A DNA stretch of 50,633 nt, from the sequence record NC_102605.1. One strand, 5' to 3'. Each line of letters opens with the position of its first letter. Position 1 is the first letter of the stretch. Shown here piece after piece: positions 14,680 to 32,639 of the stretch. This DNA is from a phage. The position numbers were made by a program, and so were the translations under genes. The notes beneath the pieces were generated by a model that saw only the letters and a program-made list of their open reading frames with translations, was not told where the DNA came from and searched no databases.

Positions 14680-14700
14680 ACACAAACTTAATCAAGTTTT

Positions 14701-14720
14701 TTAGCAAAAAGTGCTATAGG
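14701..14720 (-). promoter_or_regulatory. Dyad-motif cassette (minus orientation) for the helicase gene
   Basis: Reverse complement tatagcactttttgctaaaa; tatgat about 21 bp downstream. Confidence 0.55.
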
Positions 14721-14727
14721 TGAAAAT

Positions 14728-15336
14728 ATGAGCGAAATCAAAATTGCCGCCTCAACTGGCGAAATAGACAAACGCACAATCAATGGTAACAACGGCGTAA
14801 GACGTGGTAAAGATCGCAAACGTCGCGCACCTGTTAGCGGTTATCTTGTATTAAAGGAAGAAGTAAGAGCCGGATTAAAAGCGCGGCTTGATGAAGTTGT
14901 CAACGCTTACGGCGGTTGCGCTGCCCTGGCGCGTGAAATTGGAGTTAACCTTAAAACAGTATGGGGATGGAAAGAGCGCGGCATGATTTCAACTAAAGGC
15001 GCTGAACTGATCCAGAAAGATTACCGCCGCAAAGGTTTTAACGGTTTCCGCGCTTCATATTGCCGTCCAGATATCAAGTTTGATAATAACGGCAAGCCAT
15101 TAGAGAATCGTTGCAGCAACAGAAAGCTGATGCGATTTGTAACCAAAGAGGAAGCGGAAGCAAGAGGATTTGTGCGGCCTTACGATCCGTTACGGTCTAT
15201 GAGTCCAGAAGAACGCGAGAAAGAGAAAGCGCGGCGCAAGGCTGAACGCGACAAGGCGAAAGAAGAACAGCGCAAAGCAAAGGAGGCCAATCAGAAGAAA
15301 CGCGTTGTGATTTCCGTCGATAGCACTGATTGCTAA
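14728..15336 (+). CDS. Cro/YdaS-like HTH DNA-binding protein with Lys/Arg/Glu-rich C-terminal tail (202 aa)
   Basis: HTH signature GGCAALAREIGVNLKTVWGWKERGMIS; AGGTGA RBS. Confidence 0.55.
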   Translation: MSEIKIAASTGEIDKRTINGNNGVRRGKDRKRRAPVSGYLVLKEEVRAGLKARLDEVVNAYGGCAALAREIGVNLKTVWGWKERGMISTKGAELIQKDYRRKGFNGFRASYCRPDIKFDNNGKPLENRCSNRKLMRFVTKEEAEARGFVRPYDPLRSMSPEEREKEKARRKAERDKAKEEQRKAKEANQKKRVVISVDSTDC

Positions 15337-16476: not shown

Positions 16477-18606
16477 ATGGCTTTATATCGCACTGGTACG
16501 GCTGCAATGGACGCGCAAGGCGTTATCACTGGTACTGGCACAAAATGGCGTGAGCCTCTTTCTCTTATCCGCACTGGCGCAACAATCGTATTTCTCACAT
16601 CGCCTCTTAAATTGGCTGTGATTAGCGATATTGTAAGCGACACGGAAATGAAAGCGATCCAGACTGACGGCGAGCCAGTAGAAAACGGAAATTATGTGAT
16701 CCTGTTGAATGACTCTTTAACGGTAGATGGAATGGCGCAAGATGTTGCGGAAACTCTGCGCTATTACCAAAGTAAAGAAACTGTTATTGAGGAAGCGATT
16801 GAATTTTTCAAAAACTTTGATTTAAAAACATTACAGGATCTTGTTGCTCGCGCTGAGGCTTCCGCTCAAAAAACTGATGCAGACCGAGCCGCGACAGAAC
16901 AATTAAAAAGCGACACGCAAACAATTAAGGATTCCGCCGTTTCTGAAACTCAACAGATTAAAAATGCCGCTGTTTCTGAAACCAATCAGATTAAGGCCGA
17001 CACGGACGCAATAAAAAACCAAACGCAACAGATTAAAGATTCTGCCGTTACTGAGATAACCGGAATTAAAAATGAAGCGTTAGACGCGCGTGATGAAGCG
17101 GAAAAAGCACAATTTGCCGCTGAACAATCAAAAGTTGGTGCTGATAATGCAAAGGCTGGCGCTGAGACTGCGCGTGATGAAGCTCGCCAATGGGCGCAAC
17201 AGGTACAGCCTGAAAATCTGCTGCATAAGGATCAAAACCTTAATGATCTCGCAAACAAAGACCTTGCAAGGGAGGCGCTAAAAGTTGAGGCTGTTAATTC
17301 TGTAAAAGATCAATATGCTGGCGCTTATAATTCTTTTCGTAATCCTGCATGGACTTATGAACTAAGGATCGCGAATAACGGCGAGTGGCGAGTTGCAAGA
17401 AATAGCGATGGATCAACGTCTGTTCTTTCTGTTGGTGCTGGCGGCACTGGTGCGGAAAACGTTACGCAAGCAAAATTAAACTTGCAGATTGATAGATTTG
17501 TGCAAGGTTCAACTTCAACAACGATGAAGATTGGCGACTACACGTTTAGTCTTGGTGATAATGGCGAGTGGGGCGTTGTAAAGAGTGGCGTTAGTGGTTG
17601 GATCGCGCTTGGTGTTGCGCAAGGTGGTACAGGTGCAACAAGCACAGGTCAAGCAAGGCGTAATCTCGGTATTAGTGAATCTGATATACCAATTTTTGGC
17701 GGAGTTGCTCTTGATGCCTTTAATAGCTACACATCTGGAATATTTTACCTAAGAAACAAGAACACTAGCGGCGCTCAAGTTTCGTACTCTCGCGTTTATA
17801 ACGAGATTAAAGGAGGTTTTGCAAAAACAACAATTCATACAACCAGAGAGGGTGGAGGTGCTAACTATTTTCAGATTGATGAAACTGGGCTTGTTAATAA
17901 TGTTAGGGCGATAATATGTTCTCCGTCAAATGTTGGTGGCGATGGATTTACCGTTGGCGTTGTTCCTGGTGGAGGATTTGCAGACTGGAGAGATCGACCT
18001 GCTGGAATGATTGTTGAGCACCCAAGCGATGATGTTGCGGTTAACGTCTTGAAATCTGTCCGTTGGGGCGGAGATTGGGTTATGGGGATTGACGCTGCAA
18101 GGTATGGCGGTGGAGTTTGCGAGGTTCATCTAAATGTAAGGGGAACTACATACACATTTAATGATAATGGTTATGCTTCTGCTGGTCAGTGGGTTAACAC
18201 TTCGGATATTCGACTGAAAGCAAATCTAAAAGAGATTAAAAGCGCTAAAGAAAAAGTGAAATCAATAAAAGGTTACACTTATTTCAAGAGAAATAATCTT
18301 GATGAAGATGAACACTCTTTCTACTCTGAGGAAGCTGGTGTAATAGCTCAAGACGTGCAAAGTGTTTTGCCGGAAGCGGTTTACAATATTTCAGATTCTG
18401 AATATTTAGGTGTTAGCTATGGTGGTGTTACTGCTCTTTTGGTTAACGCAGTAAATGAAATGATCGATGATTCTGATAAGCAAAATGAACTAATTGCAAA
18501 GCAACAGGAGGAAATTAACACATTACGCAACGAGTTAGACGAACTGAAAAACCTTGTAAAATCAATGCTTAGCGGAAATGCTTCAACAATTCCAGAACTA
18601 ACATAA
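16477..18606 (+). CDS. Tail fibre with C-terminal intramolecular chaperone (peptidase S74-like) domain
   Basis: Repeated beta-rich Gly/Thr segments; C-terminal SDIRLK auto-cleavage-type motif followed by coiled coil; GAGGTG RBS. Confidence 0.7.
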   Translation: MALYRTGTAAMDAQGVITGTGTKWREPLSLIRTGATIVFLTSPLKLAVISDIVSDTEMKAIQTDGEPVENGNYVILLNDSLTVDGMAQDVAETLRYYQSKETVIEEAIEFFKNFDLKTLQDLVARAEASAQKTDADRAATEQLKSDTQTIKDSAVSETQQIKNAAVSETNQIKADTDAIKNQTQQIKDSAVTEITGIKNEALDARDEAEKAQFAAEQSKVGADNAKAGAETARDEARQWAQQVQPENLLHKDQNLNDLANKDLAREALKVEAVNSVKDQYAGAYNSFRNPAWTYELRIANNGEWRVARNSDGSTSVLSVGAGGTGAENVTQAKLNLQIDRFVQGSTSTTMKIGDYTFSLGDNGEWGVVKSGVSGWIALGVAQGGTGATSTGQARRNLGISESDIPIFGGVALDAFNSYTSGIFYLRNKNTSGAQVSYSRVYNEIKGGFAKTTIHTTREGGGANYFQIDETGLVNNVRAIICSPSNVGGDGFTVGVVPGGGFADWRDRPAGMIVEHPSDDVAVNVLKSVRWGGDWVMGIDAARYGGGVCEVHLNVRGTTYTFNDNGYASAGQWVNTSDIRLKANLKEIKSAKEKVKSIKGYTYFKRNNLDEDEHSFYSEEAGVIAQDVQSVLPEAVYNISDSEYLGVSYGGVTALLVNAVNEMIDDSDKQNELIAKQQEEINTLRNELDELKNLVKSMLSGNASTIPELT

Positions 18607-18611
18607 TACAA

Positions 18612-18640
18612 CGGGAGGCGCAACGCCTCCCGTTTTTATT
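18612..18640 (+). terminator. Rho-independent terminator after the tail fibre gene
   Basis: gggaggcg-caa-cgcctccc followed by gtttttatt. Confidence 0.8.
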
Positions 18641-18697
18641 TACATATTATTTACAGTTGGCAAATATCTATTACAAAAATAAATCGCACAAGCGATT

Positions 18698-18892
18698 GTG
18701 AATGATGGTCATCAACAAATGGATATTATGAAATCGGCCTTTACTGATTTTAAAGCTCCTGGCTCTATGTCTGGACTGTTGTCTATAATGAATACCGGAA
18801 CGCTTAACGCACAACAGCTTGAACTTGCAAGCCGGATCGCAGTTAAGGTAATTGCTGTTTTGGGTATCAAAGAAAGTGAAAAAGGGGCGTAA
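18698..18892 (+). CDS. Hypothetical small protein (64 aa) bracketed by two terminators
   Basis: ORF track; weak RBS; terminator immediately downstream. Confidence 0.3.
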   Translation: MNDGHQQMDIMKSAFTDFKAPGSMSGLLSIMNTGTLNAQQLELASRIAVKVIAVLGIKESEKGA

Positions 18893-18908
18893 GCCCCTTT
18901 ATTTTTAG
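18878..18908. terminator. Bidirectional rho-independent terminator
   Basis: aaaggggc-gtaa-gcccctttatttt, symmetric A/T flanks. Confidence 0.75.
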
Positions 18909-19351
18909 AATGGAATATCGTCGTCAAAATCCATAGGCGGCTCGTTATTTTGAGGCGCTTGTTGTCGTTGCTGCTGCTGTTGTGTCTGTTGAGGTTGACC
19001 CCATCCGCCTTGCGATTGTTGAGGCGCTTGTTGCTGCCCTCCGCGCTGGCTAAATTGCAGGTTAGAAAATCCAGCACTTGTTAGGGTGTTATAAATCTGC
19101 CCGTTATATTCGCTGCTATCAATGCGCAACTGGTCGCAAGATACAGAAATAATTTTACCCTGCTGGAATGCTTCACGATACCAATTATTCATTCCCTCGC
19201 TTTTTGCATTAAAGAAGAATTTGTAATTGGTGTATTGTCTGTTACCTTCTCGATCCTTATATGATTCTGAAAGCTCAACAATATACAGTGTGCCGTTTTG
19301 CCCTTGCTTAACAAAAGGCTCTTTGCGAATTTCTCCGGTGATAACGTGCAT
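18905..19351 (-). CDS. ssb: Single-stranded DNA-binding protein
   Basis: OB-fold-like N-terminus, Gln/Gly-rich linker and acidic C-terminal tail DFDDDIPF. Confidence 0.85.
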   Translation of the reverse strand: MHVITGEIRKEPFVKQGQNGTLYIVELSESYKDREGNRQYTNYKFFFNAKSEGMNNWYREAFQQGKIISVSCDQLRIDSSEYNGQIYNTLTSAGFSNLQFSQRGGQQQAPQQSQGGWGQPQQTQQQQQRQQAPQNNEPPMDFDDDIPF

Positions 19352-19389
19352 TTTATTTCCTTATCGGGGCGTTATCGCCCCGCGATAAA

Positions 19390-20052
19390 TTATTCAAAGT
19401 CAGTGATAGACTGTGATTTTACTTCCTGTTGCGGTTGGTTTTCAACTTTTTCATTCTTCGCAACATTTGCCGCTGGTTCAGCCGGATTAAAACCGCGAGC
19501 CTTTCCGATCTCCATTTTAGCTTTTAGCTTGTCGTAATGCTCTTTAATGATTCTCCGGTTAGCCGCATCAGATTGCTTGTAAGCCGTTTTAAACGTTTCT
19601 TGCAAGTCTGTAAGGTTATCGCAAGCATCAAGATCTTTTTTCCAATCCTGCGCGTTTTTGGTGGCAAGATTTGCGTCATCGTCAGCCGTTGCCAGGCCAA
19701 GAGCGGTGCAAAGCGCATAACGTCGCGCATAGCTATTTGTTGAGCCGCCGCCTTGTGGATCTAGTTTCTGCATTGGAAGCGTGAAACCATACTCAACCCA
19801 TTCATTTGATTCAACGTGAATGAAGCGAGTTAAAACCGTCATTGATTTCAAATCTTCGCCAACTTTCTGATCTTGCGTAAGGAATAAACCCTTATCAGTA
19901 AGGCCAGGCATAATAGCATCAAGAACACTGTCAAGAGTTGCATACTTGTTTTTCAGGTGCGTGTTTTGCTTATCCTTTTTTACTTTGGTGAATAACTGAC
20001 GCGCCTCAAACAATGCCTTAATTACGTTTGCGTTTTGTTCGGAAAACTTCAT
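19390..20052 (-). CDS. erf: ERF-family single-strand annealing protein
   Basis: ERF-like core (GGGSTNSYARRYAL); sits between the SSB and exonuclease genes. Confidence 0.7.
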   Translation of the reverse strand: MKFSEQNANVIKALFEARQLFTKVKKDKQNTHLKNKYATLDSVLDAIMPGLTDKGLFLTQDQKVGEDLKSMTVLTRFIHVESNEWVEYGFTLPMQKLDPQGGGSTNSYARRYALCTALGLATADDDANLATKNAQDWKKDLDACDNLTDLQETFKTAYKQSDAANRRIIKEHYDKLKAKMEIGKARGFNPAEPAANVAKNEKVENQPQQEVKSQSITDFE

Positions 20053-20098
20053 TTCATTGACTCCGGTTTAATAATGGCGGCTTGCGCCGACGTGTTAA

Positions 20099-20389
20099 TT
20101 AATGCTTTTCTTCGTTCTCGTTGTGATAATCAATCAAATTCTGGATCATGATTTCACTTGCCTGATTAATCATCTTGCGGTGTTCTTCGTTATTTTCCAT
20201 TTGAAGAACCGTTAATACAACGTTATCAATCGAATATGCAACCTTGCGAACATATTCAAGAGTTTCAGGTGATTCGCTTGGATCAATTACGCGCAAGAAC
20301 TGGCGTTGCATAATTCCTAATGCGTTTACAAATCCGCCTACGTGATCGCGCACATCTTGAATGTCTTGCTCATTGAATTGCTGTTCCAT
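20099..20389 (-). CDS. Hypothetical acidic protein (~96 aa)
   Basis: ORF track 20099..20431; internal ATG after GAGAGGA; own cassette upstream. Confidence 0.5.
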   Translation of the reverse strand: MEQQFNEQDIQDVRDHVGGFVNALGIMQRQFLRVIDPSESPETLEYVRKVAYSIDNVVLTVLQMENNEEHRKMINQASEIMIQNLIDYHNENEEKH

Positions 20390-20445
20390 TTTTATTTCCT
20401 CTCTCGTTGGTTGATGCGTGTAGTATAACACGCATCGAATGGCAG

Positions 20446-20466
20446 TTTTAGCAAAAAGTGCTATTT
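20446..20466 (-). promoter_or_regulatory. Dyad-motif cassette (minus orientation)
   Basis: Reverse complement aaatagcactttttgctaaaa; hairpin gatgcgtg/cacgcatc with tatact in the loop. Confidence 0.6.
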
Positions 20467-21520
20467 ATAAAAAACCTTTGTATTGACGACGAACCCAATC
20501 AGGTGTTTGCAGGTCAATTTCCGGCTCTCCGTTTGCGTATGAAGGCCAACTGTCATTTGCCTGGCATTCTGCAAACTGGTTTATCACACTCATGTATTGA
20601 AGTCGTCCGATCTTCAATTGTTCATCCGTCATGCGGTATGCAATCGGTAAATAAGGCTCTTTCTTTTCCTGCGCCAGCAATCTGACTACTACGGGGCGCG
20701 TTTCTTCTGGATACGCTTTCTTGAATAGGTCATGCTGCAATGCCATTTTCAAATAGTAGCCGTGATTGAATGCCAGCCTTGCAAACTCTGACGGGTTAGC
20801 GCTTGACGTTGTTTTATAATCCGTGATCACAATCGCTTCATCAAATCGCGTTGTTTCATATACCGGATTACCATCACCATCATAGCCGGAAATCACTGTT
20901 GCAAGCACATCCTTGCAAATATCAACATGGTCAATCCTTACTTTTACTTTCACGCCTTTGATAGTGCCGAAAATTGATAGCTCGCGTTGTGCTGTTGGGC
21001 TATTCATGCAAGCGTTGTGTTCCGGTATGTTTTCCAGTACACGGCGCATGGTAACGCAAGCGTCGTAATCTTTAGCCGGAACCAATTCAACCTTATCCGC
21101 TCGTGCCTGGCTCTCTGCGATCATTTCAATCAGCCACTGAACATTAAGATCCTCCCCACAATCAACCATCATTTTTATCAGGTCTGGATAAGTTTTCCCG
21201 CTTGTACCAGTCAGGCCAAAAGATTTTAACTTGCTTGCTAATGCCGTTTGGCTTGTGATCAAGTTTTCGTAATCTTCCGGCGCTGGCGCTCGGCGGTACT
21301 CTTTTGCGAACAACTCACTGCTTTGAAAGTTGGTATGTGACTGCGTACCAAAAACAAGCGCTTTGCTTTCCTCGCGTGGTCTGTATTTCCATGCTGCCGG
21401 ACAAGTTGCAAAGATTTCCGCCAGGCTTGAGCCGCTAACGTATTCAGCCGCCCAACCTTTAGGATCGTGATATTCATCATTGGTTAACTGGTCAAAGGTG
21501 TAAACTTTAAAATCGCTCAT
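20465..21520 (-). CDS. PD-(D/E)XK-family exonuclease, recombination partner of Erf
   Basis: D...E.K nuclease core (ITDYKTT region); ATG after GAGAGGA; directly upstream of erf. Confidence 0.6.
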   Translation of the reverse strand: MSDFKVYTFDQLTNDEYHDPKGWAAEYVSGSSLAEIFATCPAAWKYRPREESKALVFGTQSHTNFQSSELFAKEYRRAPAPEDYENLITSQTALASKLKSFGLTGTSGKTYPDLIKMMVDCGEDLNVQWLIEMIAESQARADKVELVPAKDYDACVTMRRVLENIPEHNACMNSPTAQRELSIFGTIKGVKVKVRIDHVDICKDVLATVISGYDGDGNPVYETTRFDEAIVITDYKTTSSANPSEFARLAFNHGYYLKMALQHDLFKKAYPEETRPVVVRLLAQEKKEPYLPIAYRMTDEQLKIGRLQYMSVINQFAECQANDSWPSYANGEPEIDLQTPDWVRRQYKGFL

Positions 21521-21544
21521 TTGGTCATCCTCTCGTTGGTATGT

Positions 21545-21580
21545 CTGCATTATAGGTCTTTGTTGCATGTAGTCAATACC
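21545..21580 (-). promoter_or_regulatory. Sigma70-type promoter TTGACT-16-TATAAT for the recombination operon
   Basis: Plus strand shows agtcaa and attata with a 16-bp spacer; homologous to the promoter at 105-140. Confidence 0.6.
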
Positions 21581-21920
21581 CTTTAAGTGTTCTTTTTGTT
21601 TTACATACGTTTATAGCTAGCACTGACAACAAAATAACATCGTAAGTTTATGATTTTACTGATTGTTGTTTTTGTGTTCCATTGTTAACGCATTTACGCC
21701 GCATACCATATATAAATACATACCATGTGATATATAACCATTAACCAATACAAAACACACAACCACCACAAACCATAGAGAACAACAGAAACAAGAAGAA
21801 TACAAATAGATATATATAATAATAATTAAACTCTAAGTGTATGTATTATATAGATATTTAATTTGTTCTTTTTGTTTTCAAGACGTTTTCAATTTTACGC
21901 CGGATTCAGTTGTGAACATC

Positions 21921-21966
21921 GTGGAACAAAAGAAAACAAAATGCCCCGACCGTTAAGCCAGGGCAT
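21921..21966 (-). terminator. Rho-independent terminator at the end of the late operon (after J)
   Basis: 7-bp stem aatgccc/gggcatt followed on the minus strand by ttgttttcttttgtt. Confidence 0.55.
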
Positions 21967-21981
21967 TGATTTACCTCCTTT

Positions 21982-24900
21982 TTATGCTTTGAATAGCAGA
22001 ACCGTTAAGATCGGCACTGCGTCTGCGTGGTTTAGATCTCCTGAATATGTAAGCGTTGTTGCTTGTCCTGCTGGCAACATAATGTAAGCACTACTACCGC
22101 CATGCATTGCAGTTGCTCTAACAGTTGCCAACCTTCCGCCATATGTTGAATCAACCCAAACAGTACCACCGCCCCATGCGCCGCCTGAGTAGGTGTAACC
22201 ATGCAAACCAACATACGGGATCACAAGGTGTCTGTTGTAGTTGACTGCCGGAATATTTACAGAACCCCAAATTGGCAATACAACAGCCTTTGCAACGTCT
22301 CCCTCAATTTTTTCAGCGTAAACAGTACCCCTAAACCATCCATCTTGCGCGTAAACGCTTCCGGTGAATGAACCATATGATGCGTAAACGCCACCCCTTA
22401 CAGTTACCTGGTTAAATTCAGCATAACCATTCTTATTAATCATCCAGCCAGCCGCGCCGCTACTCCAGTTGTTAGAGTTTATCTGATCTGCAATCTGTGC
22501 ATTACCGATAGAACCATTTTTAACAAGTAAGCTATTGATAAACACCTGATTATTTTCAACAACAAACGGCAATGTAAAGGCTCCGCTTTGAGCATTATTG
22601 ATGATCGCAAATCGTCCAGCATCAAACAGGAATTGTGATTTAACTCCGCTACCATCAGCGACAAGAGAAAGCGCCATACCTGCGCTATATTCCTGCCCGT
22701 TGTACCTGATCCCCAACTTAACGCCGTACATCGCACCAACGCTTGTACCGTTAACCCATGAATCAAGTTTCTGGTTAACCGCTGATTGGGTATCACCAAT
22801 TTGAGTTGATAACGCCCTATCCGCTGACGCTCGCGCTTCCGCTTCATTGGTGATTGCCTGGTTAACATCGGTTATCTGCGCTTTGATATCCTGCTTAACC
22901 CCATCAATTTCGCTCTCAAACGTAGCTGTAAGCTGATCAATCCTCTGGCTAATTGTTTCAGTGCTGTTAGCAATTACCTCTCTCAATTCGCTATTTTGAG
23001 CCGTTAATTTCTCGTCAAATTGCGCACTCATTTGAGTGACCTGCGTTACCCTTGCTTCTGTTTCGTCTGCAATGAGTTTCAGCGATTGCAAGAACTCCGC
23101 TTTACGCTTGCCGTTTTCAACTCGCATACGTCGCACATCTTTATCATTCGCCAATGCGTTTTCAATCACTGATTCCGCTGTGCTGTGGATCTTATCATTG
23201 GCCTTTATTGCGTTTTCCTGTAACCACTTATAGCCATCAGAATTTTCAATATCGACCTTAATATGATCCGTGATAATGCTTGTATCGTCGGAAGCCATGC
23301 CGCGCACAAAATCAGTCCAATCAGAAACGTTACCGATTTTGTCAACTGCCCTTGCCTTGTACCAGACAACATGACCCGCTGGCAGTATTGAATGCCAATA
23401 CTCATATTGCGGGAACGGTATTAGCGTTAAGAGCGTTGCTTCATCAACAATAGGATGACCATCAGAACCGTTCGGCGCTTGATGCAACTCAATATATGCC
23501 GTGTCTCCGCTTCCTTCTGGCATACCCCATTTAACGCGAATTCCGAAAACTTCATTATCAGACGCAGTAAGGTTAATTGGCCTTTCCGGTTCGCCAACCT
23601 TGCCAGTTAATCCGGCGCTTACAATGGCTGACCATCCAGACGCTGAACCATTCGCTGCAACAGATCTAACCCTTACGTGATAGTTTCCGGCGTAAATTCC
23701 TTCAACTTCCGTTTCCTTGTTGGCTGTGCGCGGCGTGTTGTTCCAGTTGCCATTGTCTTTTCTCCACTGCATTTCATAAAGGCTTGCATATTCAACCTTA
23801 TCCCATGAAACGTGCATTGTTTCCACGCTCGAGCCCTGGACAACTCGCGAATAAGATTCGATCTTGACGTTTTGCGGCGCTGGCAAAATGTCAGGCTGCA
23901 CGATTGAAGTCGGACGGTCATCAATGTTTACGCCATAATCAATTTCATCGTATTTGTTAGGATCGTATTCAACAGCCGTTATGTTGTAGGTAAATTCTTC
24001 ATCACCGTCACCCTTAGTGATTCCGGTTACAACATATCGTTGCTGTGCAATATCGGTTCGCTCAATTGCAAAAATGGTATCTGGCTGAACGTCAAAGCCA
24101 AATGTCGTGTTTAGCGTTAGCGTTTTACCGTCATCACTTACACGCGCAATGGTTCGACCAACTGGCTTACCATCCGGCTTATTTACCAGAATGCGATCAC
24201 CTGCTCTTGCGTCAACCTTAAACGGCGTGAACACCTGCAACCCGCTAACCTCCATCACGCGACCTGATAGATTCAGCGTTAGAGCGCTTGACCAAAAGTT
24301 ATCCGATACAACAATCACATCGCCTACGGTTGGGATCATACCTTCCAGACCTGTAGCAAAGTTTACCGTTGTGCTCTTGACGTTGGTTTTTAAAATCCAG
24401 CGTCCACGGCGGTTGGCTTCGCTGCGTCGTGTGCATCCAATCGCAGTAATTGACGTGCTGTTATAGCCAAAACGTAACGCCGCCTCCGTTTCGAAAACTC
24501 CCTCAACATCCTGTTGATACATGTTTTGTTCGTCGTCGAAAGTCACGTTGCATTGCGTGTACATGCTTTTTTCGCTGGCAAACGTGTAAGTGAATTCACC
24601 GTTAACCACGTTGTCATTAGTAAAGATGTATGACGCATCGCGAGGCTTATCGATCACGATTGAAAGGCTCTCACCATTCCAAAAGCTCATGCCACGGAAG
24701 ATTGAACAAATATCACGCACAAGCTGATACGCTTCTACCTGGCTCTGGATCACAACGTCGCAAAGATAGCGCGGCTCTGTTCCGCCTTTACTGTCTGGAA
24801 CCATCTGATCGCAATACTGCGCACATTCGTAAATGCTCCATTTATCAAGCGCGATGCCTAACTCTCTTTGATCGAGTCCGTAACGCTGATTGGTAATCAA

Positions 24901-25769: not shown

Positions 25770-25790
25770 TTTTGTGCTATTTAAACGTGC
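25770..25790 (-). promoter_or_regulatory. Dyad-motif variant (aaatagcac-aaaag-gttaaaa) abutting the J start codon
   Basis: Motif halves present, but no room for a -10 before the ATG. Confidence 0.35.
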
Positions 25791-31980: not shown

Positions 31981-32639
31981 TAAGCCTGAGTAGAAGGCAA
32001 GAAAGTAAATCGACCTTTCAGGGATACCGACAAAGAAACGGTTTCCATTTCGTTTACCGCCGTTTGTGGGATCTCGTTGAAAGAAAGCACACCAGCCCAA
32101 AGGCGCATTTCTTTTGCTTTTGGTACATACATGCGCAATGCTTTAACGTCGCCGGATTCGTCAGCCTTACGCAAGAGCGGATAAATCGGATTATCGTACT
32201 CATGCGCAAAGGTGTAAGTCAGTGACACCGCGCTTTTATAGGTTGGTAACTGCTGCTCCTGGTCATCGCTCAAGCACTGGTAATTGTAATACTGCTGCTC
32301 GCCGCCGTCCTGCCCCAAGTCCTGTACGCATGGGATCTCTGTCCATGATTCAATTTTCATAACGCTACCAGTAGCGCCGGACGGAAAAACGTTTTCATCA
32401 GTGGTGTCGATACCTTCAAGCGTGAAACTTGTGTTATCGCTAACCTCTTTAACTCGCAGTACACGATCAAGAAGTTTACCCCACGTTGATACAGTGACAA
32501 TCACATAATCACCTTTTTTCAATCCGCCAGTATCAGACGCGGTAAACACCGGATCTGTTGCGTTGCTGATTGCTGTTGCTTTGATTTCTGAGCCGCGAGT
32601 ATTCTCAATAAAAATCTGTGATCCGTTAGGTAAGTGCAT
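31980..32639 (-). CDS. Major tail (tube) protein
   Basis: Position upstream of the G/GT chaperones, followed by a strong terminator. Confidence 0.6.
   Translation of the reverse strand: MHLPNGSQIFIENTRGSEIKATAISNATDPVFTASDTGGLKKGDYVIVTVSTWGKLLDRVLRVKEVSDNTSFTLEGIDTTDENVFPSGATGSVMKIESWTEIPCVQDLGQDGGEQQYYNYQCLSDDQEQQLPTYKSAVSLTYTFAHEYDNPIYPLLRKADESGDVKALRMYVPKAKEMRLWAGVLSFNEIPQTAVNEMETVSLSVSLKGRFTFLPSTQA

Follow-up and report, generated by a model that had tools for sequence, protein, structure and literature searches.

The recombination module of a Tlsvirus

The 50,633-nt phage DNA of sequence record NC_102605.1 (the window, meaning the whole stretch that was analysed) carries at 18905-21520 of its minus strand four closely packed open reading frames (ORFs) in the order exo, small ORF, erf and ssb. 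In our judgement these very probably make up a T1-like recombination module of a Tlsvirus, in which an exonuclease of the RecE type, an ERF-family annealase and a phage single-stranded DNA-binding protein (SSB) would act together on DNA ends. The module is the standard recombination gene set of T1-like phages (Drexlerviridae), ordinary and already published. An earlier note had proposed an Erf-type recombination module on this strand; all features that it described were recovered at or within the positions given there, and both proteins on which the proposal depended have profile support, the matches to PF04404 and PF12684 lying above their cutoffs. The genes and the signals at either end are as follows.

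20465-21520, minus strand: exo, 351 amino acids (aa), predicted RecE/ExoVIII-type PD-(D/E)XK exonuclease
20099-20389, minus strand: small ORF, counterpart of TLS gp52, 96 aa, acidic protein with three predicted helices
19390-20052, minus strand: erf, 220 aa, ERF-family single-strand annealing protein
18905-19351, minus strand: ssb, 148 aa, C-terminus ...PPMDFDDDIPF
21549-21576, minus strand: promoter P1, TTGACT (21576-21571), 16 nt, TATAAT (21554-21549), predicted start near A21542, equivalent to TLS P51
18881-18900, both strands: bidirectional intrinsic terminator, 8-bp GC-rich stem with T-runs, equivalent to TLS T54/T55A

Across the module region, Salmonella phages GJL01 and YSP2 share 98.6% and 98.5% identity with the window, and Escherichia phage TLS shares 95.3% (the last as nucleotide identity over 18700-21800). 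The lineage of these phages is Drexlerviridae, Tempevirinae, Tlsvirus, and the window phage is likewise a Tlsvirus. The TLS and YSP2 records carry the annotations recE/exoVIII, recombinase/Erf-like protein and ssb. The 2024 re-annotation of TLS (NC_009540) lists gp51 as an exodeoxyribonuclease of 351 aa, gp52 as hypothetical, gp53 as recombinase and gp54 as SSB, and its Table S1 gives a promoter P51 (ttgact...), a direct repeat DR9, a terminator T52 and the bidirectional T54/T55A (German et al., PMC11447400). We consider the module already known because this re-annotation has the same genes, promoter, repeat and terminators, and because T1 and the family keep the gene order. TLS gp51-gp54 resemble the window in gene set and order, promoter, 21-nt repeat copy, hairpins and closing bidirectional terminator, and differ from it in an SSB protein that is 86% identical to that of the window. 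The TLS RefSeq record uses longer starts for recE and gp52, and names the ERF-family gene 'recT', which is a wrong label. The order exo-erf-ssb is also kept in Motto, atuna, W011D, K50-type Klebsiella phages and NBSal001. T1, which belongs to another subfamily (Tunavirinae), shares the core of ST29 (exonuclease VIII), ST28 (Erf-like) and ST27, flanked as in the window by the tail J/cor region and the tail-fibre gene, but has no small gene.

The exonuclease

The exo product scored 56.1 bits with the Pfam family PF12684 (PDDEXK-like DUF3799), where the cutoff is 26 (E = 5.9e-15), and matched phrog_412, 'exonuclease VIII', at 1.9e-103. The NCBIfam model PRK09709 for exoVIII matched locally only, its 31 bits lying far under the cutoff of that full-length equivalog. 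The earlier note had called the enzyme a PD-(D/E)XK exonuclease of a YqaJ/Cas4-like kind, and the first half of this description stands on the PF12684 match. The second does not: a Pfam profile search at E up to 0.1 returned no match to YqaJ (PF09588), and PDDEXK_1 (PF12705) scored 17.4 bits, below its cutoff of 22. Because of these two results, we assign the predicted exonuclease to the RecE/ExoVIII type (DUF3799) rather than to YqaJ or Cas4. In a weak alignment (E = 0.25) its motif ITD234-Y-K236-TT is placed on IMDVKTT of the RecE chain 3H4R_A, which we take to be the catalytic D-x-K of RecE.

The start codon at 21520, as proposed earlier, is right. A longer ORF of 367 aa, used by the RefSeq record of TLS, would begin at an ATG at 21568; we rejected it because this codon falls within P1, in the spacer that separates -35 from -10, and because the additional N-terminus lacks conservation (comparison loci L017 and L018). 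The re-annotated TLS gp51 is also 351 aa long.

The pairing of a 5'-3' double-strand exonuclease with a single-strand annealing protein follows the two-component logic of Rac RecE/RecT and lambda Red (Exo/Beta/Gam). The window exonuclease has the C-terminal PD-(D/E)XK domain family of RecE, DUF3799, but is far shorter (351 aa as compared to 866 aa). The Rac and lambda systems differ further in that the window annealase belongs to the ERF family and not to RecT/Red-beta, and in that the window module brings an SSB of its own and lacks a Gam homologue.

The Erf annealase

The assignment of erf to the ERF-family annealases, as claimed earlier, was borne out by a match of residues 12-137 to Pfam ERF PF04404 (94.8 bits, cutoff 25, E = 6.7e-27) and by phrog_155 (2.9e-46). 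BLASTP aligned the protein with P22 Erf at 27% identity over 118 columns (E = 2e-6), and a full-length match was found to PDB chain 9Y6U, Gp77 of phage SECphi27 (E = 1.8e-69). Gp77 is an Erf-like protein that forms a 24-fold ring (9Y6U/9Y9C), its gene adjoins an SSB gene, and it triggers the defence RNase RAZR; SECphi27 phage without gene 77 depends for growth on plasmid-encoded Gp77, so the protein is essential (Zhang et al. 2026, PMC13017515). The three RAZR-escape positions of Gp77 are S19, S31 and D41, which correspond in the alignment to Q19, T31 and D41 of the window Erf. By analogy, the window protein would also form rings; it is further predicted to anneal single-stranded DNA.

The erf frame is intact in the window. 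In the records of the near-identical relatives YSP2 and Salmonella phage 36 it is broken, near codon 202 in the former and at several points in the latter, probably through sequencing errors.

The single-stranded DNA-binding protein and the closing terminator

The ssb product was the most divergent at the level of curated families, giving no Pfam match at E up to 0.1 (including PF00436) and 17.5 bits against TIGR00621, as compared to the 53.95 required. Its sole profile match was phrog_44 (3e-24). An AlphaFold2 (AF2) model built with 27 homologues predicts a beta-barrel for residues 1-100 (predicted local distance difference test, pLDDT, ~84-93), and gives residues 105-143 a pLDDT below 50, consistent with a disordered Q/G/P-rich linker. 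When the model was compared with the PDB by Foldseek, the best 50 matches were all SSB/OB-fold proteins, nearly all of them bacterial or organellar SSBs, with probabilities of 0.99-1.00 (best 4DAM, E = 1e-4; E. coli 1EYG, 8e-4). The last 13 residues, NEPPMDFDDDIPF, are identical to the tips of the E. coli/Klebsiella SSB chains 1EQQ and 7F2N. The phrog_44 match, predicted fold and tail together support a divergent OB-fold phage SSB with a host-identical tip, in agreement with the earlier claim of an SSB with a DFDDDIPF tail.

In T1, the ssb position after Erf is taken by ST27 (32211-32633), annotated as a hypothetical protein and lying behind a hairpin GGGCGGC-UUAG-GUCGCCC; from its position only, ST27 is very likely the T1 SSB. 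On the other side of the closing terminator, a 64-aa ORF at 18698-18892 of the plus strand, hypothetical in YSP2, runs toward ssb and has the terminator at 18881-18900 in common with it. Behind the tail-fibre gene, at 18610-18634, stands a second strong hairpin that is likewise bidirectional. An Rfam scan of 18500-22100 gave nothing in the module; weak matches to sroE/sraA at 18601-18683 stayed below the gathering score and are accounted for by this second hairpin.

Promoter P1

P1 matches the consensus at 11 of 12 positions. It lies between genes, points in the right direction and stands 29 nt ahead of the exo ATG. Both hexamers and their spacing are retained in all 17 related loci, and T1 has an identical TTGACT-16-TATAAT although the flanks diverge. 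The promoter that the earlier note had read here is thus present at 21576-21549 and conserved. Its designation as 'early' follows from the sigma-70 consensus only and we treat it as presumptive; a literature search found no transcription-start data for Drexlerviridae phages.

Between P1 and the tail-gene terminator (21967-21940) lies a non-coding AT-rich spacer of 400 nt (21580-21985), which is 93-97% conserved in Tlsvirus and 69-75% in W011D and atuna. Two copies of a 25-nt direct repeat (21588-21612 and 21864-21888) lie in it with 88% identity, along with an inverted repeat rich in TATATA at 21810-21855. The superinfection exclusion gene cor is found nearby in relatives, and a tblastn search of the spacer for a cor remnant gave no match. 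The spacer may be a regulatory or replication-related region.

The small acidic gene

The protein encoded between exo and erf is acidic (isoelectric point 4.62; 18 D/E against 8 K/R) and is predicted to fold as a three-helix bundle (pLDDT 91.7). Profile and fold searches gave no informative fold or family match. Its homologues (26 clusters) are all about 96 aa long and share an invariant DPSES motif. A profile search for a wider family among 1.84 billion representative proteins returned 25 matches, four of them long repetitive proteins with weak local similarity, and the true relatives number about 21. In phrog_11265 and many GenBank records (TLS, YSP2, NBSal001) the protein is labelled 'tail length tape measure protein', a propagated error that is implausible for 96 aa inside a recombination module.

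Our best guess is an accessory role in host interaction. A further step would be to regard the gene as no recombination component at all, but as an inserted accessory, for example a host-nuclease inhibitor or anti-defence gene, that uses the expression slot of the module. We rate this as a serious possibility, only slightly short of an even chance. It would fit the acidity of the protein and its few relatives, as well as the absence of the gene from T1, Motto, atuna and W011D, all of which keep exo-erf-ssb. It would also fit the mosaic pattern seen against locus L015 (IMG/VR 2711768829), where nucleotide identity is 95-100% in exo and erf and 56-81% across the small gene, protein identity is 98% for exo and erf and 59% for the small protein, and the breakpoints of the cassette (window 20080-20400) fall at the repeat/leader and, at the opposite end, where erf starts. 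Judged by these sequence comparisons, the small gene reads as a mosaic, lineage-restricted orphan. Its position argues the other way: in every phage where the gene was found, its place is between exo and erf, down to identities of 36-49%. The phage P22 cluster erf-arf-abc1-abc2 likewise combines an ERF-family annealase with small accessory proteins of similar size (~95 aa), but P22, which encodes no exonuclease, redirects the host RecBCD via Abc2. The window protein is unrelated to Abc1 and Abc2; we rejected it as a homologue of these anti-RecBCD factors at hhalign probabilities of 0.1-0.2%, and this lack of similarity (< 1%) also speaks against an inserted inhibitor of that kind.

The hairpin between erf and ssb

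The earlier note had pointed to a hairpin lacking a T-tract between erf and ssb, and we located it within the interval proposed.

19365-19382, minus strand: hairpin CGGGGCG-AUAA-CGCCCCG, immediately before AAGGA, the Shine-Dalgarno sequence of ssb

The stem is followed by AUAAGGAAAU and not by a U-tract, and a terminator scan did not call it. In a 61-nt context the minimum free energy (MFE) is -14.9 kcal/mol (z = -1.8). The hairpin occurs in all 14 distinct sequences compared, with a nearly invariant stem and 94% of cells paired. Covariation is thin, amounting to three double changes that all come from T1 (stem GGGCGGC/GUCGCCC), and the hairpin is conserved mostly via sequence conservation. 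Its loops are mostly of the GNRA type; TLS has GUAAU where the window has AUAA.

The phrase 'processing or attenuation site', used for this hairpin earlier, is fair, and of its two halves we lean away from attenuation, toward an mRNA-stabilising or insulating structure beside the ssb ribosome-binding site. As a leaky terminator, the hairpin would lower ssb relative to erf, and the stability of the GC-rich stem would suit this role, as would the T-runs that follow it in atuna and K50 (CCCCTTTTG, CCCCATTTTT), the only relatives with a U-run at this place. We nevertheless think attenuation unlikely, at perhaps one chance in a handful or a little better. AUAAGGA rather than U's follows in the window and most relatives, GNRA-type loops are typical of stable RNA caps, covariation is weak, and SSB is normally needed in large amounts. 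We think it most likely that the hairpins between the genes of the module serve at the 3' ends or in the processing of mRNAs, and not as terminators.

A probable internal promoter after exo

At the end of exo, the window contains an exact copy of the 21-nt direct repeat of Tlsvirus, followed by a hairpin, and a second hairpin separates the small gene from erf.

20446-20466, minus strand: direct repeat aaATAGCACTTTTTGCTAAAa (TLS DR9), overlapping the exo stop codon
20413-20436, minus strand: 9-bp hairpin GATGCGTGT-tatact-ACACGCATC, z = -3.7 in a 91-nt context
20076-20091, minus strand: hairpin between small gene and erf, counterpart of TLS T52, GNRA loop, no U-tract

The loop of the hairpin at 20413-20436 is itself an extended -10 box (TG at 20430-20429, TATACT at 20427-20422), with a predicted start near A20415. 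Among relatives the arms of this hairpin differ fully and yet pair (GCCAATT/AATTGGC, CGTGGTG/CACCACG, TTGGCTG/CAGTCAA, CGGGAT/ATCTCG). Phages with no small gene have the repeat unit immediately before erf, and T1 retains between exo and erf only a truncated remnant of the repeat, ATAGCTAAA-19-TATAAT. The DR9 unit with its extended -10 box is probably an internal promoter, P2, for the small gene, erf and ssb; exo would then be expressed from P1, and the downstream genes from both promoters. Two proposals of the earlier note have to be refined here. A leftward row of genes behind P1 was found, but one operon under one promoter is probably too simple, given the repeat and extended -10 box after exo. 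The dyad said to form a cassette of the small gene's own is real, and represents the genome-wide 21-nt repeat unit together with a hairpin downstream, the one named terminator T52 by the TLS authors.

In the view of the TLS re-annotation, P51-gp51-DR9-gp52-T52 form a closed transcription unit, the only clear transcripton, that stops short of erf; T52 (ggcggcgcaagccgccattatt) is listed there with a free energy of -17.1 (PMC11447400). A closed unit would leave erf and ssb with no described promoter. Translated to the window, P1 would drive only exo plus the small gene, the T52-type hairpin would terminate, and erf-ssb would be transcribed from another promoter, for which a weak TTAACA-16-CATTAT match spanning the hairpin could be put forward. 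We consider this arrangement improbable. The -10 box of that match changes to CATTAC in NBSal001 and is missing from L015, and for this lack of conservation we rejected the match as a promoter. The hairpin has no real U-tract and stands only ~30 nt from the erf ATG, and phages without the small gene have the repeat unit directly before erf and no T52. In relatives, the hairpin reads GGCGGC-GCAA-GCCGCC, with loops GCAA, GAAA, GUAA or GCGA, and GGGAGGC/GCCUCCC in K50. The window differs from TLS by a weakening substitution: an A (plus strand) at 20090 breaks the second pair, G-C in relatives, leaving 4 bp and a mismatch with an MFE of -6.8 kcal/mol (z = +1.0). If erf and ssb are to be expressed, the hairpin can be no efficient terminator.

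The 21-nt repeat as part of a possible promoter family

The repeat at DR9 (consensus aaATAGCACnnnTTGnTAAAA) recurs throughout the window, and its function is an open question for the authors of the TLS re-annotation (PMC11447400). Counting copies with at most one mismatch in a 17-nt core, we found 22, of which about 20 units were scored for downstream features (18 in T1). The cores start at the following positions.

738, 1248, 1897, 2801, 3733, 5148, 5828, 15321 and 35658, plus strand: 17-nt repeat cores
10900, 12258, 14716, 20463, 25779, 44022, 45344, 46446, 47635, 48011, 48263, 48891 and 49301, minus strand: 17-nt repeat cores

The copies are intergenic and oriented with the local genes, the exception being a partly palindromic site at 14700-14718 that matches both strands. 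A -10-like hexamer (CATAAT, TATAGT or TATAAT) starts exactly 20 nt after the core in 16 of the 22 window copies and 11 of 23 T1 copies, and at any other offset from 8 to 33 such a hexamer is seen in two copies at most; those at 25779 and 35658 have no good -10 box at the canonical offset. Position -14 is a G in 18/20 units of the window and 16/18 of T1 (with a complete TG in 11/20 and 10/18), and an A stands 7 nt after the hexamer in 16/20 and 15/18, respectively. The pattern can be written as TGnTAtaaT with a conserved cA as the predicted start. The fixed offset, the G at -14 and the A at the start are, at the level of sequence, the signature of predicted extended -10 sigma-70 promoters, which would escape any search built on a -35 box at 15-19 nt. 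Counted from the predicted starts, the repeat covers -49 to -33, and its palindromic core TAGCA-N5-TGCTA is centred near -42, the geometry of class-II activator sites. Two other readings were rejected. For sigma-54 (TGGCAC-N5-TTGC), the repeat has TAGCAC-N3-TTGC, which is 2 nt short and carries AG in place of the obligatory GG; as a -35 box, TTGnTA of the repeat would leave a spacer of 22 nt to the -10 box.

A hairpin with z < -2 lies between the repeat and the predicted start in 15/20 window units and 16/18 T1 units. These hairpins are unrelated in sequence from unit to unit and occur in two fixed registers, one inside the spacer and one across the -10 box. Folding is more stable for the sense than for the antisense strand (means of -12.65 vs -9.13 kcal/mol in the window, Wilcoxon p = 3.5e-4; -12.9 vs -9.8 kcal/mol in T1, p = 2.7e-5). 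This excess reflects G.U pairs and points to a role at the RNA level, in read-through transcripts, or in sense single-stranded DNA. In read-through transcripts, the hairpin may serve, for example, as a 3'-end cap or insulator. Taken jointly, the repeat would be the upstream element of ~20 extended -10 promoters, the hairpin would act as RNA, and DR9 would partly free the downstream genes from P1; we see this combined reading as evenly balanced between right and wrong. The small gene, if driven by DR9, could be a host-interaction or anti-defence factor.

At 14728-15336 of the plus strand, beside the primase gene, the window encodes a protein of 202 aa whose helix-turn-helix of the YdaS/Cro type (PF15943) scores 24.6 bits, under the cutoff of 30. 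It is flanked by the divergent repeat copies at 14716 (minus) and 15321 (plus). Its position corresponds to that of T1 ST23 ('transcriptional regulator'), the two being likened by position only. This protein is a candidate binder of TAGCA-N5-TGCTA.

Proposed action of the module

The mechanism that we propose, most likely classical single-strand annealing, builds on gene identities, order, signals and their conservation, and, for SECphi27 Gp77, also on essentiality and the 24-mer ring. From these features we infer the enzymatic activities and their timing, that the internal promoter is used, and what the small protein and the hairpins between the genes do. Host sigma-70 RNA polymerase would start at P1 and read all four genes, from exo to ssb, in the leftward direction as far as the terminator at 18881-18900, and the repeat-associated extended -10 promoter right after exo would probably add transcripts of the small gene, erf and ssb. 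The RecE-type exonuclease would then resect the 5' strands at double-strand ends, and Erf, as a ring-forming annealase, would pair the exposed complementary single strands, whether terminal repeats or replicated copies. The phage SSB would coat single-stranded DNA, and its host-identical tip could engage the host proteins that dock there. TLS packages its DNA by a pac/headful mechanism, and its genome is therefore terminally redundant (PMC11447400). Exo, Erf and SSB together would circularise or concatemerise such a terminally redundant, headful-packaged genome and support recombination-dependent replication. Early T1 genetics is said to have tied DNA-arrest mutants to concatemer formation, a function that the host RecE pathway reportedly could supply, which would agree with the mechanism proposed here; our literature search did not recover this work.

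Several points weigh against the reading of these genes as a module with this mechanism. The direct similarity of exo to the solved RecE is weak (E = 0.25), and SSB lies under every curated sequence-family threshold. As a bare pattern P1 is unexceptional, with three matches at 11/12 in the whole window against 1.6 expected, and the -10 box of the DR9 copy stands at offset 19 and reads TATACT. To these is added the closed transcription unit described for TLS, discussed above.

A different use of the exonuclease would be the degradation of host DNA for nucleotide scavenging, with recombination secondary. Breakdown of the host genome is a known activity of T1 and TLS that has been assigned to no enzyme (PMC11447400), and a processive RecE-type exonuclease could contribute once ends exist, but it needs ends made by another nuclease, the invariant exo-erf-ssb arrangement across the family is a signature of two-component recombinases, and the partner Erf is essential in SECphi27; we give this idea little credence.

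Significance

By itself, the module means little, being a routine annotation confirmed in a phage that is 98.6% identical to sequenced isolates. Two public labels in it are wrong and still spreading: the ERF protein is called 'recT', and the 96-aa orphan 'tail length tape measure protein'. ERF-type annealases are among the proteins sensed by Avs21. This sensing and the closeness of the window Erf to the RAZR trigger Gp77 make the module relevant to a view of T1-like phages from the side of defence systems. The only part that is possibly new is the repeat-promoter architecture, which concerns the whole genome rather than the module. If true, the combination of the repeat with an extended -10 box would offer a concrete and testable answer to the question that the TLS authors left open.

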